From Chloroflexota bacterium (GTDB taxonomy: Bacteria > Chloroflexota > Anaerolineae > Anaerolineales > UBA4823): a DNA stretch of 64,000 nucleotides. The notes under the pieces are model-generated. The model saw only the letters and a list, made by a program, of their open reading frames with translations. It was not told the DNA's origin and ran no database searches. The position numbers and the translations under genes are program-made. The stretch covers positions 168,339 to 232,338 of the forward strand of contig JAJUJL010000005.1 in NCBI GenBank assembly GCA_029265355.1. The letters run 5' to 3'. This document shows, in pieces, positions 15,758 through 28,453 of this stretch (position 1 is the stretch's first letter; each line of letters starts with the position of its first letter).

Positions 15758-15824
15758 ATATCTTCACCTGTTGAGTGTGTTGGATTGCGCCTTATGCCAG
15801 GCTGTGTGGGTATCATTCGCCATA

Positions 15825-19628: not shown

Positions 19629-19710
19629 GCCGAAGTGGCGGAATAGGCAGACGCGCACGACTCAAAATCGTGTTCCCTCGGGAGTGTGGGTTCGATTCCC
19701 ACCTTCGGCA
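19629..19710 (+). tRNA. tRNA-Leu(CAA)
   Basis: Acceptor GCCGAAG/CTTCGGC, D-loop GGAATAGGCAGAC, anticodon arm CACGA-CTCAAAA-TCGTG, long variable arm, GGTTCGATTCC. CCA not encoded. Confidence 0.97.
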
Positions 19711-19846
19711 CAGGCAATCCCAATCATTGGCAACAAGGGATTATAGCACAGGCTCTCCGGGGCTAATCCCGGAGAGCATTTTTTCCGCTCACTTTCTCAA
19801 CGACTAAGTGCGGCCTTTTCATGTTGCGTTCATCAGGAGGTGACGA

Positions 19847-23175: not shown

Positions 23176-24276
23176 TCACTCCCGGGGTAACACCTGGCTC
23201 TCTCCAACCCGGAGAAATTGCTCCAGGTTGTCGAAAGTAACGGGGATACCCTCTCGGCGCAAGCTGTAACGCCGTTCACCGCTTTCTTGCAGCACAATGT
23301 GCACCAGCCCTGCCAGGCGGAGAATACTGAGATGATGCAGAACAGTCGGCGGCCGTAATCGCAACTTGCGCGACAATTCTGCCAACGTGAAGGTTTGTTC
23401 AGCCAGGTAACGCAGCATTCTCAATCGGGTGGGATCGGCAAGCGCCTTGAGCACGCGCAGCATACCATCCGGAATAACATCTCCCGGCACCAGCGAGACA
23501 TTTGCCGGGCGCGCTCCAAACAGGAAGCCCAAACGGTTATCCTGCAGGCGGCGGATGATCACCAATGGCGTTATCCAGATGGATGGAATAAAAATCACCT
23601 CCGAAATGTCGGCGGGAAGAGACAGGTGCACACCTTGAGACAGGGTATCCATCAAGCCAGTCAGGCTCATCTTTGCAGACTGCTCCTGCGCCTGCACTAA
23701 GCCTTGATACAACAAAGGCTGGACGTGCTTTTCCTCCTCGGCAAAAAAAACCTGGTAATAGGCTTGCAAAGCGCGAACCAGGCGCTCGCCTGTTTCGTGT
23801 GCGGTTGCCCAGGCTTCCAAACATTTTTTTAAGAAGCGCTCTTTTGGCAATTTATAGGGACTGTATACCGCTTTCAGAGCCTCCAGGTCCTCTGTTTGCC
23901 ATTTGCCGGCTTCGGCGATGGCATTCAGCCTTTGCTGGAAACTTTTATCCAGATGCAACGCAAGGGTCAGGTGAGTCAGTCGTTCGATTGCAGGAATCTG
24001 CTGTAATGCAGAAAGCGCCGCAGAAGCCTCCCGAAGAGCCGCAGACGAAAGAATCCACTCGATGGGCACGCCCATTGTTGGCATGAGGTCTTCCAGCAAT
24101 TGGCGGTCATTGGGTTGCAGGCGTGACCGAACCCCCGCAGCCCAGGAAGGGCGCAGGCCAAACAAGCCTGGATCATGCAGCACAATCAGGCTGGCAAAAA
24201 AATCATAACTGCTGCCAATATCCCAGGAGATTTTTATCTCTGCATCGCTCATTACCGTACAAATCCAATTAGACAT
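23176..24276 (-). CDS. ArsR-family regulator (C-terminal wHTH, long N-terminal domain)
   Basis: LKALADPTRLRMLRYL...TVLHHLSILRLAGLV. Alternative start at 24252. Confidence 0.88.
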   Translation of the reverse strand: MSNWICTVMSDAEIKISWDIGSSYDFFASLIVLHDPGLFGLRPSWAAGVRSRLQPNDRQLLEDLMPTMGVPIEWILSSAALREASAALSALQQIPAIERLTHLTLALHLDKSFQQRLNAIAEAGKWQTEDLEALKAVYSPYKLPKERFLKKCLEAWATAHETGERLVRALQAYYQVFFAEEEKHVQPLLYQGLVQAQEQSAKMSLTGLMDTLSQGVHLSLPADISEVIFIPSIWITPLVIIRRLQDNRLGFLFGARPANVSLVPGDVIPDGMLRVLKALADPTRLRMLRYLAEQTFTLAELSRKLRLRPPTVLHHLSILRLAGLVHIVLQESGERRYSLRREGIPVTFDNLEQFLRVGESQVLPRE

Positions 24277-24301
24277 TTACCTAATTAGACAATTATCTAA
24301 T
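24267..24301. promoter_or_regulatory. Tandem 16-bp quasi-palindromic repeat, candidate ArsR operator
   Basis: AATTAGACATTTACCT followed by AATTAGACAATTATCT-AAT (TTAG-N8-CTAA twice). Confidence 0.45.
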
Positions 24302-24800
24302 CTATCATATATCCGTTAATCGATCTCGTCAAGCATCCTCCCCATACATCCTTGAAAGTAAAAATAGTAGCCTTGCATACCCCCATATCTAGGGACTCTC
24401 TAACGCACCAGAGAACCCCTGACGTGTTTCTGGTTGTGGATAACTCGCGAAATACTGTGGATAAACCTGTTAATCTGGGGAAAACTTGCTTTTTTGTGCT
24501 AAAAATCCGTTCTTCGTAGACCCCCATATCTGGGGGATGCTTAATTTGTTTCCCGATATAGCCGCGCGCCTTTGTGGGATGGAAAAACAACTAGATCTTC
24601 TGCGAATCTCATCCAACCAGCCCTGGGGATAAAATCACCTGCGATTAACGCCATATCTGGGAATGCCTACGCCTGATCCCTCATCAATACGGTCTTTTCT
24701 GCCCGGTTTCGATTTTCTCCACATATCCACACCCCCTACGAAGACTACGATATATAAATTAAACAATCATCATTGGATAAAGAATCCAATTAAGAAAAAG
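24300..24800. other. Putative chromosomal replication origin (oriC)
   Basis: Perfect DnaA boxes TGTGGATAA at 24435 and 24456; near-matches at 24476, 24624, 24715 and 24723; then CCCC-CTACGAAGACTACGA-TATATAAATTAAA. parS pair ~10.5 kb away. Confidence 0.8.
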
Positions 24801-24806
24801 CCAGCC

Positions 24807-26378
24807 TCACGGGCTGGAAAAGTAACGTTGTCTTAATTGCCCGAAATCAGCCTCTGTAAACTGCGCCAATAGCTCAAAAAAACCTTGGGCAGTCGCGATT
24901 TGATTTCGATTTTGATCCACGTACGCTTTGAGAAAAGCGGTGAAGGATTCATCGCCAACGGTTTTGCGCAGTTCTTCCAAAAAGACAGCCCCGTTGAGAT
25001 ACACAGCATCGCGATAGGCGCGATACCCCTCAGGGTTATAGATACTGCCATCCACCGCGCCGCGCGGCTGGTAATAATTCACCCGGTATGTCCACCACCA
25101 ATCCAACGCTTCAGGGTAGTAACGTTCGAAAAACAAGCGTTCGCTGTAGGTGCACAATGCTTCGTCAAGCCAGGGTTCGTTCCCTTGATCGTTGCCTACC
25201 AACCCATAAAACCACTGGTGAGCGGTTTCATGCGCGGCAATGGCGATCAGATATTCCGCCGGCGTTCCCTGATACAGGTTGTAGAACCCATTGCTCAAAA
25301 AGTACAAACCGTCGTATTCCATTCCGTCCAGGAAATCTGCCTCTACCACAGACAGCGTCTTGCGTGGGTAATCGCCAAAAAGCTGGTTGAATAGCGCCAG
25401 TGCTTTGATGGTGGTGTCCAACACTGCCTCGCCCGCCGCGGGATGGAAAGGGAAGGTGTAAGCTGTGACTTCGACATTCCCAACCTGCGCACTTTTCACC
25501 TGGTATTGGGTGCTGACCGATAGAGCAAAGCCGCGCGCCTTTTCGAGGTGATATCGCCGCCACTCGCCCTCCACTTGAGCGGGGGCGCTGGCAGCAACAA
25601 CATGAAACGAGTTCTCGTCCGAAATTCGCAGATTCACCGTGAAATTGGCTGCTTCGTATGCCAGGTGTTCGCCAAAAAAGAAGGCCTTATTCGCCAACCA
25701 TCCGCTTCCCTCGCGATAGGGTGGAATGAATGGATACCAATCGACCAGGTTGGTCTGGCGTTCGGTGTAGCCGAAGGGTATAGGGCGTGTTTCTGCAGAG
25801 GGCGTCGGCGAGGGCAGTTGGATGGCATAGGAGATTGCCAGGGAAAGGATCTCTCCCGGCATCAATGGCGTGATCAGGGGCAGGGTGATCTGTCCCGTAT
25901 CCCAGGCAATTTCGCCGATCGCAGGCCCAGACTGGGAGGTGATGCTGTTGAGTTGAAACGCTCCCGGGTAATAGGCTGGCTCGATCATCAGGCGGATATC
26001 CGGCAGCGGTTCGCTGGAACGGTTCTGATAGCGGATTTGTTGATCGACGGCGATATAGTGGGTCGAATAGTTCAAGACCGCCGTCAGGGTATAGAATGCG
26101 CTGGGTTCAAAGCTGGCAGGAGGCGGGACGAAGGTGGGGGAGGGCGTCTCTGTGCCAGGCGCAGGATTCCCGGCGATCGCCGGTTGCGTGATGGCCGGAG
26201 GAGAGATTGGCAGCGATGTAGCGGTGCGCTCGATCAGGCTGGCATCATTGCCTTCGGGGCGGCTGGCCGGTGTTTGGTCAGGAGAATTGGCCTGGCAACC
26301 TGCCAATACCATCACCAATAAGATGAGCAGCAGCCAATGACGGGATCGCGGCCTGGATTTCATATCAAGCAAGACCAA
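24807..26378 (-). CDS. M1-family metallopeptidase, lipoprotein with Pro/Thr linker
   Basis: LAGC lipobox, GMEY, AHETAHQWF...WLDEAL, Y..GAVFL. Confidence 0.9.
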   Translation of the reverse strand: MVLLDMKSRPRSRHWLLLILLVMVLAGCQANSPDQTPASRPEGNDASLIERTATSLPISPPAITQPAIAGNPAPGTETPSPTFVPPPASFEPSAFYTLTAVLNYSTHYIAVDQQIRYQNRSSEPLPDIRLMIEPAYYPGAFQLNSITSQSGPAIGEIAWDTGQITLPLITPLMPGEILSLAISYAIQLPSPTPSAETRPIPFGYTERQTNLVDWYPFIPPYREGSGWLANKAFFFGEHLAYEAANFTVNLRISDENSFHVVAASAPAQVEGEWRRYHLEKARGFALSVSTQYQVKSAQVGNVEVTAYTFPFHPAAGEAVLDTTIKALALFNQLFGDYPRKTLSVVEADFLDGMEYDGLYFLSNGFYNLYQGTPAEYLIAIAAHETAHQWFYGLVGNDQGNEPWLDEALCTYSERLFFERYYPEALDWWWTYRVNYYQPRGAVDGSIYNPEGYRAYRDAVYLNGAVFLEELRKTVGDESFTAFLKAYVDQNRNQIATAQGFFELLAQFTEADFGQLRQRYFSSP

Positions 26379-26402: not shown

Positions 26403-27356
26403 TCAGCCGGTCATCTCGGCGCGCACTTTTTGATACAAAGCCTCAGCTTTCAATTCACTGAGCGTGTAGCAAGGAGCATGGAGGTGTTCTGCCAGCGATT
26501 GCGCCAGTCCCTGGTCGAAAGCGGCGTGTTCCATATTGATGACCACGCAGCGAATTTCATCTCCGGCGATTTGATTTGCTATGCGGTGGGACTCTTCTTG
26601 AGGCGGCAGGTTTGTCAGGGATACATTGCCGGCGCCATCCGTCAGCAGAATGATCAGCGGGTTGACATCCGGGTGCACAATGCGCTCTTTGCGGATCACC
26701 TCGTGTGCCAGGAGCAAGCCGGCGGAGAGCGGGGTCTTACCGCCAACTGGGATATCGGCCAGTGAACGCTGCGCCAACTGCACCGAGTTGGTCGGGGGGA
26801 GCACCAGCGTGGCGCGATCTTTCTGGAAAACAACCAGGCCAACTCGATCGCGGCGTTGGTAGGCGTCGGTGAGCAGAGATAGGATAGCTCCTTTGGTGGC
26901 CGCCATACGCTCAGCGACAGCCATTGACCAGGAAGCATCCACCACAAACAGCACCAGGTTGGAGGCCTTCTTGATGCGAATTTTGCGCTGGTAATCGGAT
27001 GACCGCACTGCGAAAGCGACGCGTTTGCGCATCTCACTGCGCTGGCGTTGAAATGGCGCTGCGGCGCGCAAGGTAGCATCGAAAGCCAGGTCTTCTGGTT
27101 CACCAGGGGAAGGGCGCGCCTGGATGTAGCGGCCGCGTTTTCGATCGGTGCGGGTGCGCGAACGGCGGCCCCCTTGACGGCGGGTCATACGGTCCAGAGG
27201 ATTTTCGATTTTGCGCGGGACGAACGATTGCCCGATCTTGACCTTTTCGCCGCCTTCCCACCAGTTGGCGCGCCCGGTGTCGAACACCTGTTGGGGAGCT
27301 GGCTCTGCTGGTTGTCGGCTAGAGTCCTCTTCCGGTAAAATCTCCGGTGTTATCCC
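26403..27356 (-). CDS. C-terminal (linker + VWA) half of ChlD/CobT-like chelatase medium subunit, reached by -1 shift from the upstream ORF
   Basis: FVVDASWSM (MIDAS), GGKTPL, LLTDG. The frame is open upstream of the ORF-track GTG (27287) through the A10 run. Confidence 0.85.
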   Translation of the reverse strand, partial: GITPEILPEEDSSRQPAEPAPQQVFDTGRANWWEGGEKVKIGQSFVPRKIENPLDRMTRRQGGRRSRTRTDRKRGRYIQARPSPGEPEDLAFDATLRAAAPFQRQRSEMRKRVAFAVRSSDYQRKIRIKKASNLVLFVVDASWSMAVAERMAATKGAILSLLTDAYQRRDRVGLVVFQKDRATLVLPPTNSVQLAQRSLADIPVGGKTPLSAGLLLAHEVIRKERIVHPDVNPLIILLTDGAGNVSLTNLPPQEESHRIANQIAGDEIRCVVINMEHAAFDQGLAQSLAEHLHAPCYTLSELKAEALYQKVRAEMTG

Positions 27357-28453
27357 TTTTTTTTTTCTGAATTGGGCGGCTGGTTTTCATCCAGGGAGGG
27401 CTCAGGCTCGCCAGATGAGAAGGCTTGACCCTGTAGCTGTTCGATGCGCTCTTGCAGATCTTCCATGCTGATTTCAGCCTGGTGGAATGGGCCTCGTTTG
27501 ATGCGGTGCGGCAGAGCCAGTTCAGCCGCCAGGGCAATATCGCGATCGGAGATGGCTTTACGACCTTCGAACGCGGCGTGGGCGCGAGCCGTCTTCAGGA
27601 TTACCAGATCGGCGCGGTGACCATCGACATTCAAAGAGGCGCTCAAGGCGGCGATCGAGAGCAGGTCGCGCCGGTTGTAGGTGACTTGATCGACCAGCAA
27701 GCGCGCCTGGTCAATTTGGTGGGATAACTCTTCTTCGGAGTGCATCCAGCGCTTACGGAATTCTTCGGAATTGCTTTCGAACGACAGGTTGCGCTCCATG
27801 ATCAGCACGCGCTCTCTGGCGTCACGAATGCCATGAATTTCCACCGAGAGTGCAAAGCGGTCTAACAATTGGGGGCGCAGATCGCCCTCTTCGGGGTTCA
27901 TTGTGCCGACCAGGATAAAGCGCGCGGGGTGAGAGAAGGAGATGCCTTCGCGCTCGACGATGTTCATGCCCATGGCAGCGGAGTCCAGCAGCAAATCGAC
28001 CACATGATCATCCAGCAGGTTGACCTCGTCAATGTACAGCAGCCCGCGGTTGGCGGCTGCCAGCACGCCAGGCTCGAAGTGTCGTTCACCCTTCTGGATG
28101 GCCTTTTCGATGTCAAGCGTGCCGACCACGCGATCCTCTGTGGCCGAAACAGGCAGGTTGACAAAGGGCGTGGTGCGCAGTTCGACCGGCAGCATTTGCC
28201 CGCTCTCGGCCCGTTCGCGGCATTCTGTGCACCAGGTGGTTGGGCGGTCCGGGTCGCAGCCGAAGCGACAATCCGCCACCACGGCGACCTTTGGCAGCAG
28301 CGCAGCCAGAGCCCTGGCAGCGGTGGACTTGGCGGTGCCGCGCTCTCCCCGGATCAGGACGCCGCCAATGCGGGGGTCCACGGCGTTCAAAACCAGGGCG
28401 CGTTTCATACGCTCCTGTCCAACAATGGCGGTAAAGGGATAGATGTAAGGCAT
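27350..28453 (-). CDS. ChlI/BchI-like AAA+ chelatase ATPase subunit (N-terminal half of a frameshifted chlD-like gene)
   Basis: YPFTAIVGQE, GERGTAKST, ATEDRVVGTLD, LYIDEVNLL, MNPEEGDLRPQLLDRF, DGHRAD. Confidence 0.93.
   Translation of the reverse strand: MPYIYPFTAIVGQERMKRALVLNAVDPRIGGVLIRGERGTAKSTAARALAALLPKVAVVADCRFGCDPDRPTTWCTECRERAESGQMLPVELRTTPFVNLPVSATEDRVVGTLDIEKAIQKGERHFEPGVLAAANRGLLYIDEVNLLDDHVVDLLLDSAAMGMNIVEREGISFSHPARFILVGTMNPEEGDLRPQLLDRFALSVEIHGIRDARERVLIMERNLSFESNSEEFRKRWMHSEEELSHQIDQARLLVDQVTYNRRDLLSIAALSASLNVDGHRADLVILKTARAHAAFEGRKAISDRDIALAAELALPHRIKRGPFHQAEISMEDLQERIEQLQGQAFSSGEPEPSLDENQPPNSEKKKG
27357..27366 (-). other. A10 slippery site (programmed -1 frameshift or transcriptional slippage)
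   Basis: GAA AAA AAA AAG GGA TAA. The -1 frame reads KGITPEILPEEDSSRQPAEPAPQQVFDTG into the VWA ORF. Confidence 0.75.

Follow-up and report, generated by a model that had tools for sequence, protein, structure and literature searches.

The DNA examined here is a window of 64 kb (positions 168339-232338 of contig C32) from the genome of a hot-spring Anaerolineales bacterium, a 5.05 Mb assembly in 64 contigs referred to as G000; other G and L numbers denote the genomes and loci of relatives, and positions without a contig name are those of the window. A gap of 530 bases (24277-24806) separates two ordinary genes, for an ArsR-family regulator on the left and an M1-family peptidase on the right, and is very probably the site at which copying of the chromosome starts. 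An earlier reading of the sequence (the original prediction) had proposed a probable origin of replication (oriC) here, detached from dnaA and equipped with a full basal unwinding module.

DnaA boxes and the probable unwinding module

If two mismatches are allowed, the gap contains seven DnaA boxes where the rate of the window itself would predict 1.2, and the whole window has 19 boxes with at most one mismatch as compared with 7.3 ± 3.05 in shuffled sequences. Two perfect copies, both TTATCCACA and both on the minus strand, occupy 24435-24443 and 24456-24464, 21 bp apart, and a co-oriented third box with two mismatches, TTTTCCCCA, follows 20 bp further on (24476-24484, minus strand) to complete an array spanning 24435-24484. 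Another minus-strand box, TTATCCCCA (24624-24632), has one mismatch and forms half of an inverted box pair in relatives. The perfect pair, with its positions and spacing, and further near-matches had been noted in the original prediction, and all of this proved correct.

Further to the right, two tandem, co-oriented boxes on the plus strand, TTCTCCACA (from 24715) and ATATCCACA (from 24723), overlap by 1 nt and have one mismatch each (24715-24731); they correspond to boxes 6 and 7 of Bacillus subtilis and are conserved in 72 origins of the class Anaerolineae. After them come a 4-nt G+C spacer, CCCC (24732-24735; GGCC in B. subtilis and GCCC, GGCC or CCCC in relatives), five DnaA-trios assigned to the minus strand, CTACGAAGACTACGA (24736-24750; top strand CTA CGA AGA CTA CGA, bottom strand 3'-GAT GCT TCT GAT GCT-5'), and, directly after the trios, a putative A+T-rich unwinding element of 80% A+T (24751-24800). 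The second least stable 40-mer of the 64-kb window starts at 24750, with a free energy (dG) of -42.9 against a mean of -61.0 (sd 4.3), and an A+T-rich tract follows the trios in all relatives. This succession of overlapping boxes, CCCC, array and A+T had likewise been placed correctly beforehand.

The module was compared with the published rules for such elements (PMC8287927). Where these allow up to two mismatches per box, in what is usually a tandem co-oriented pair, the tandem pair here has one each; where they allow a spacer of up to 16 bp with a G+C-rich gap of about 4 nt, the gap is CCCC, and the 12 nt from the upstream box end to the first trio fall within the reported peak of 10-13 bp. 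The distal A+T tract is that at 24751-24800. The trio rule, which calls for a run of three or more NAN triplets on the strand read 3'-5', formally (.A.){3,}, fails in the window: the middle bases of the five trios are A, C, C, A and C, and the canonical adenine is present just in trios 1 and 4 (two of five). If A or C is allowed in the middle, the array conforms. A top-strand NAN run, TAC GAA GAC TAC GAT, was not counted as trios, being on the wrong strand and of the wrong polarity.

Trios 2-5 of the 72 origins, read on the bottom strand, begin with G in 85% and end with T in 86% of cases, and their middle base is A in 55% and C in 33%, so that 88% have one or the other (96% in the first 29 origins analysed). 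Canonical arrays are found among the relatives, with six consecutive CTA triplets at L091 and four at L019. In B. subtilis, cytosine can replace the central trio adenine both in vitro and in vivo and G and T cannot (Pelliciari et al. 2023; PMC10721633), a tolerance that is explained by A and C both presenting an amino group to Asn187 of DnaA (PMC10721633). The DnaA protein of G000, aligned to the chain of the cryo-electron microscopy structure 8BTG, keeps Asn187, Ile190, Ile193, Arg202, Lys222, Glu223 and Glu228 (B. subtilis numbering). Because the register and outer bases are kept, relatives have canonical arrays, the middle base is A or C and cytosine is tolerated experimentally, the reading as an unwinding module holds despite the failed rule; the window's trios are in register with, and homologous to, the canonical arrays.

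In Table S1 of PMC8287927 the B. subtilis module is written 3'-5' as AATAGGTGT-TTAGGTGT-CCGG-GATGATAATGAAGATGAT, from which it follows that the top strand reads TTATCCACA-AATCCACA-GGCC-CTACTATTACTTCTACTA and then TTTTTTATA. The window, with TTCTCCACA-TATCCACA-CCCC-CTACGAAGACTACGA-TATATAAATTAAA, is colinear with this incC region of the B. subtilis origin (Richardson 2016/2019; Pelliciari 2021/2023) and resembles it in order and strand. In both, two boxes share 1 nt and are followed by a 4-nt G+C spacer, by a 3'-GNT-5' array on the complementary strand and by an A+T tract. Unlike its B. subtilis counterpart, the window origin does not lie between dnaA and dnaN, has no upstream incA/B part next to dnaA, centres three of its five trios on C, and carries palindromes resembling boxes for the repressor NrdR among its DnaA boxes. 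The oriC module of Deinococcus radiodurans, which has been tested in vitro (PMC8287927), has a very similar core, TTTTCCACA-GTATCCACA-GGCC-CTACTACTGCTACTACTG and then A+T (Table S1, complemented); there, unlike in the window, all trios have a middle adenine. The claim of a full basal unwinding module is thus borne out in its order, strand, box overlap, spacer and A+T tract, all of which match incC, and falls short at the formal middle-adenine rule.

By homology with B. subtilis, opening at this origin would begin with DnaA-ATP bound to the co-oriented high-affinity array at 24435-24484 and also to the tandem pair at 24715-24731. A DnaA filament would extend from that pair across the 4-nt spacer onto the bottom-strand trios (24736-24750), capturing in each the G along with the middle base, an amino-bearing A or C, and so stretching that strand. 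The adjoining A+T tract (24751-24800) would then open, and the helicase would be loaded there.

Position in the genome and detachment from dnaA

When every 500-bp stretch of the 5.05-Mb genome was scored for DnaA boxes, the top cluster was that of the origin gap (C32:192773-193061), with a score of 7 against 4 for the runner-up. The cumulative GC skew of C32, named in the original prediction as a check, drops steadily by 3098 across 194 kb and then rises by 658 up to the contig end, and its minimum, at C32:194050, lies 1.3 kb from the cluster. It is the sole large V-shaped minimum in the assembly; C46, C36 and a few more contigs show maxima rather than minima. By the Ori-Finder/DoriC criteria the site therefore offers an intergenic DnaA-box cluster and a GC-disparity minimum. 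A skew switch or a better box cluster elsewhere, for example at dnaA, was looked for genome-wide and not found, and the call of a probable oriC is sustained by the coincidence of the top cluster with the sole large skew V, by conservation in relatives and by repetition of the skew result in two of them.

Other candidate origins were rejected. A box cluster at C36:110055-110247 lies inside an open reading frame (ORF) of 842 aa, within a 43-kb stretch (C36:105000-147826) whose GC skew of -170 to -230 per kb is 5-6 times the replichore skew of the genome; this stretch is a run of large minus-strand ORFs and yields a false, terminus-like skew maximum at C36:104293. A box pair at C32:3742/3771 belongs to a hairpin adjoining a gene for an IS256/Mutator-type transposase: C32:3742-3779, directly after that gene, is a near-perfect inverted repeat with two perfect DnaA boxes (CTGTGGATAAGTGG...CCACTTATCCACAG), and is probably an insertion-sequence end or a terminator hairpin and no cluster of DnaA sites. 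C2 has just a minor local wiggle in its skew, and this has no boxes.

Searching with the M1 peptidase gave 33 related loci, nearly all in metagenome-assembled genomes with the label Anaerolineales, Anaerolineae or Chloroflexota. In at least 17 of the relatives, whose peptidases are only 51-71% identical, the stretch immediately downstream of that gene carries the same elements in the same order, namely the perfect box pair 21 bp apart, the tandem overlapping boxes, the 4-nt G+C spacer, the trinucleotide array and the A+T tract. The two perfect boxes are invariant in an alignment of 17 relatives, and the minus-strand box array is found class-wide at -320 to -220 from the module. The skew result is replicated independently in two relatives that have long contigs, the minimum falling 1.3-1.7 kb from the boxes. 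G001 has it at 1,491,874 and the box pair at 1,490,607, with dnaA on the same contig 772 kb off; G003 has it at 169,806 and the box pair at 168,059, with dnaA on the same contig 46 kb off.

In G000 itself dnaA lies at C17:88814-90157, between dnaK and a gene for an AI-2E transporter, and encodes all three DnaA domains. The skew of C17 is monotone at -38.8 per kb, with no turn, and dnaN is on a further contig (C31:57.7 kb), so the proposed detachment from dnaA is supported. No DnaA box with at most one mismatch was found in either of the intergenic regions flanking dnaA, the nearest being about 1.3 kb downstream, inside the transporter gene, and a bipartite origin with a second part near dnaA was rejected on this ground.

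A strict pattern, TCCMCNTWTCCMCANNNNCTAC, comprising the tandem boxes, the spacer and the first trio, was searched in 401 sampled Anaerolineae genomes. It was present in 58, as a single copy in 57 of them, and the reversed control pattern gave 2 matches. In 17 of 56 genomes the arrangement is that of B. subtilis, with the module on the strand of the DnaA AAA+ domain and about 1 kb downstream of it; in 39 the module is apart from dnaA. In several cases detachment is proven on single contigs or closed genomes at distances of 166 kb, 155 kb and about 640 kb, and in G250 at 190 or 702 kb. Since both arrangements occur, detachment is a rearrangement of particular lineages; this split, together with flanking genes of the detached origins that are unrelated between families, shows that an ancestral dnaA-linked origin was separated from dnaA in several lineages, this one included, while the module stayed nearly unchanged. 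In G000 the origin would have been parted from dnaA by such a rearrangement, the homologous module still standing directly downstream of dnaA in other families. As the module was retained amid reshuffled surroundings, it, and not the dnaA-dnaN context, is the conserved unit.

The Escherichia coli origin, between gidA and mioC, has likewise been parted from dnaA by rearrangement (PMC8287927). It has a weak unwinding-module score, 13-mer repeats and sites for IHF, Fis and SeqA, in contrast to the window, which keeps the full ancestral Bacillus-type module despite its relocation. The sole Anaerolineae origin in Table S1 of PMC8287927 is that predicted for the cultured Anaerolinea thermophila UNI-1 (DoriC ORI94030346; genome positions 420-460), a member of the same order of bacteria. 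Unlike the class-wide module, it consists of a single box with 2 mismatches, a 16-nt spacer and an array with a low trio score of 7, and this prediction may be at the wrong locus.

NrdR-box-like palindromes

Interspersed among the DnaA-binding elements are three GC-clamped ATATAT/ATATCT palindromes, 16-mers of the CCCCCATATCTGGGGG type. P1, CCCCCATATCTAGGGA (24380-24395), keeps its placement in relatives; P2, CCCCCATATCTGGGGG itself (24521-24536), lies 197 bp upstream of the module, at the most conserved position class-wide; and P3, ACGCCATATCTGGGAA (24648-24663), lies 70 bp upstream and has in relatives a partner box 31 bp further on that is degenerate in the window. Six positions of the NrdR box, a 16-bp partial palindrome, are highly conserved, namely C4, A6, A8, T9, T11 and G13 (PMC13584703), and each of the three copies has all six. 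In this they agree with the boxes of ribonucleotide reductase (RNR) promoters; unlike those, they are inside an origin, are mostly isolated instead of forming 31-bp pairs, and keep conserved offsets from the unwinding module.

Within 420 bp upstream of the module, 54 of 70 origins have one or more 6-of-6 boxes, where about 5 would be expected (the background in G000 is 0.17 per kb). The boxes cluster at about -340, -200, -80 and -40, in dnaA-attached and detached origins alike, and the bin at -200 is the fullest of their offset histogram, with 26 boxes over the 70 origins. Other families have canonical-looking boxes, for example CCACTACATCTTGTGT, at the matching offset, and pairs 31 bp apart occur in the origins of some relatives (L006, L012, L017 and G332). 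The perfect palindrome is confined to the origin in the four relatives that hold a perfect copy (G003-G006).

The motif also occurs at nrdR promoters of the clade. When a matrix derived from the origin sites is applied to six relatives, five of them have a match of 10 bits or more 44-310 bp upstream of nrdR, against a background of one per 58 kb, and in G003 a 31-bp tandem is present upstream of nrdR. The same matrix gave no strong match in the nrdR promoter of G000 itself. The initial doubt that this cast on an NrdR reading was dispelled by a pair of 5-of-6 boxes at -82 and -51 of nrdR (C44:31885-31931), spaced by exactly 31 bp, which G001 has at the same positions; in both genomes they lie, in identical geometry, just downstream of a promoter, TTGCAC-N17-TAGAAT in G000. 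The gene heads an nrdR-nrdJ operon on C44, followed by an 868-aa ribonucleotide reductase gene that is the sole match to the RNR large-subunit family in G000; nrdJ is used here as a label and does not imply an RNR class. The 16-mer type was also seen near cas2/cas1-like genes, in leader-side DNA of two CRISPR loci (C45:2769-2784, ATCCCATATCTGGGGG; C48:947-962, CCCCCATATCTGGGGG), and as a 32-bp tandem beside a tyrosine-integrase gene (C49:34433/34465).

Given these properties, the three palindromes, at fixed places between the DnaA-binding elements, would probably bind NrdR, the repressor that senses dATP and ATP. It is quite conceivable, if short of probable, that they are instead targets of some other architectural or regulatory protein, or hairpin or cruciform elements. 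For NrdR to bind tightly, a pair of boxes joined by a 15-16 bp linker (31-32 bp between centres) is normally required, and those of the window are isolated, 141 and 127 bp apart. The copies in the CRISPR leaders and beside the integrase gene, from which the idea of an IHF-like architectural protein was considered, point the same way. Single predicted NrdR boxes are known elsewhere, close to Shewanella dnaA and Pseudomonas topA, and single non-RNR boxes of E. coli and of P. aeruginosa are suspected to be false positives. Against this stand the six conserved positions in all three copies, the recovery of nrdR promoters by a matrix derived from origins, the box pair at -82/-51 of nrdR in G000 and G001, and the canonical-looking boxes at equal offset in other families together with the 31-bp tandems of some origins. 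In the literature searched, no description of NrdR boxes inside a replication origin was found. We put forward tentatively, as a possibility, that class-wide NrdR sites at oriC read the deoxyribonucleoside triphosphate (dNTP) pool and gate or shape the DnaA complex, and that the natural C-centred trios (3'-GCT-5') are the first natural counterpart of the A-to-C tolerance of B. subtilis.

Neighbouring genes, alternative explanations and implications

The gene to the left of the gap (23176-24276, minus strand) encodes a 366-aa ArsR-family protein with a C-terminal helix-turn-helix at residues 281-326 (Pfam HTH_5, 8.9e-13), and holds the slot that dnaA takes, directly left of the module, in Anaerolineae with attached origins. 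Two tandem imperfect 16-bp palindromes, TTAGACATTTACCTAA and TTAGACAATTATCTAA (24269-24300), lie over its start codon and promoter; a sigma-70-like promoter is found at 24332-24304 on the minus strand. Repeats of this kind, TTAGAyNNNNrTCTAA (TTAGAC-N4-yCTAA type), are kept as 2-4 copies in 12 of 17 relatives, and the palindromes are probably the regulator's own operators, directly abutting the origin. To the right, the M1-family peptidase gene (24807-26378, minus strand; Pfam Peptidase_M1, 1.8e-17) is a syntenic marker of the origin in related Anaerolineales. It is transcribed toward the origin and has at its end an intrinsic-terminator-like hairpin with a T-run (24801-24817, minus strand). 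Both flanking genes are those that had been predicted. Beyond the peptidase, genes for a VWA-domain protein and a MoxR/Mg-chelatase-like AAA+ ATPase (26403-28453) are also on the minus strand.

A minus-strand bias of the genes to the left had been offered as a further sign of an origin. It is strong locally, the minus strand carrying about 80% of crude ORFs over the nearest 40 kb to the left, and dwindles to 55% (88 of 160) over the whole left arm; 48% of crude ORFs on the right arm are on the plus strand. Gene-strand bias was discarded as evidence, being too weak in G000 to decide.

Depth of coverage was compared in Logan contigs of three hot-spring metagenomes, with the C46 skew maximum as the putative terminus. 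The ratio of origin to terminus was about 1.2, 1.2 and 1.0, values that are within noise at 8-17x and with strain heterogeneity. Within the gap, the strains in these metagenomes differ from the window at just two positions, 24543 and 24686, neither of which falls in an annotated element. Elsewhere in the window, contig depth spikes 2- to 7-fold at a tRNA-Leu(CAA) gene (19629-19711), because conserved tRNA sequence of other organisms is summed in. Strains of two of the metagenomes have a 27-28 nt insertion, AAAAAA(A)CCTGGAAAATCCCAAATGCGC, at 15812 that the window is without.

Several observations weigh against an origin at this site. Neither dnaA nor dnaN, the usual indicator genes, adjoins it, and no gene of the wider Ori-Finder/DoriC indicator set (gidA etc.) is adjacent; the first three genes on its right are head-on to a rightward fork, which is unusual beside an origin; gene-strand bias is weak genome-wide; and, as noted above, the trios fail the formal middle-adenine rule. 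The skew of C32, about 15 per kb, is weaker than that of most contigs (30-40 per kb), the depth ratios show no gradient above noise, and with 64 contigs a second skew turning point may sit at a contig break. The broken assembly and the lack of an adjoining indicator gene would also suit a cluster that is a DnaA titration or regulatory locus (datA/DARS-like) or a DnaA-controlled promoter region, the true origin being at an unassembled contig junction. We consider this most improbable, since the skew minimum coincides with the cluster here and in two relatives with contigs of 0.6-1.7 Mb, the homologous module is single-copy and has, in 17 genomes of the class, the classical place downstream of dnaA, and the next two clusters of the genome are far behind, one inside an ORF and one at the IS256-type transposase hairpin.

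The origin could also be correctly located and yet open first at the A+T-rich tract on its left (24262-24320), with the right-hand module as an auxiliary. The least stable 40-mer of the whole window starts at 24272, in the ArsR-family promoter/operator region (dG -41.7, against the mean of -61.0), and the trios of the window are in part non-canonical. This too is unlikely in our view: the left tract consists of clade-specific palindromes over a promoter and start codon and is not found in the origins of other families, whereas the tandem boxes, 4-nt spacer, trios and A+T tract keep their order and register across the 72 origins, and the right-hand geometry is the one that has been shown, for B. 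subtilis and five further species, to direct unwinding (PMC8287927). An origin opened at the right-hand module remains the preferred explanation. Taken as a whole, we hold with high confidence that 24277-24806 is the single chromosomal oriC of this bacterium, with opening of the Bacillus type, moved away from dnaA and carrying probable NrdR sites.

An origin of this kind is in itself familiar; new here, and class-wide, are the natural A- or C-centred trios and the conserved NrdR-type boxes inside the origin. The alternation of A and C in the middle of the arrays of the class, with G or T almost never there, puts the "amino-group" model of 2023 for the recognition of trios to an evolutionary test, and explains why these origins are under-scored by search rules that demand a middle adenine. 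The module fixes the origin in a clade that is large, mostly uncultured and without a usable marker in dnaA, and can serve replichore analysis, growth-rate estimates from metagenome coverage and vector design. The fixed positions of the NrdR-type boxes suggest, in addition, a direct link between dNTP supply and the initiation of replication.

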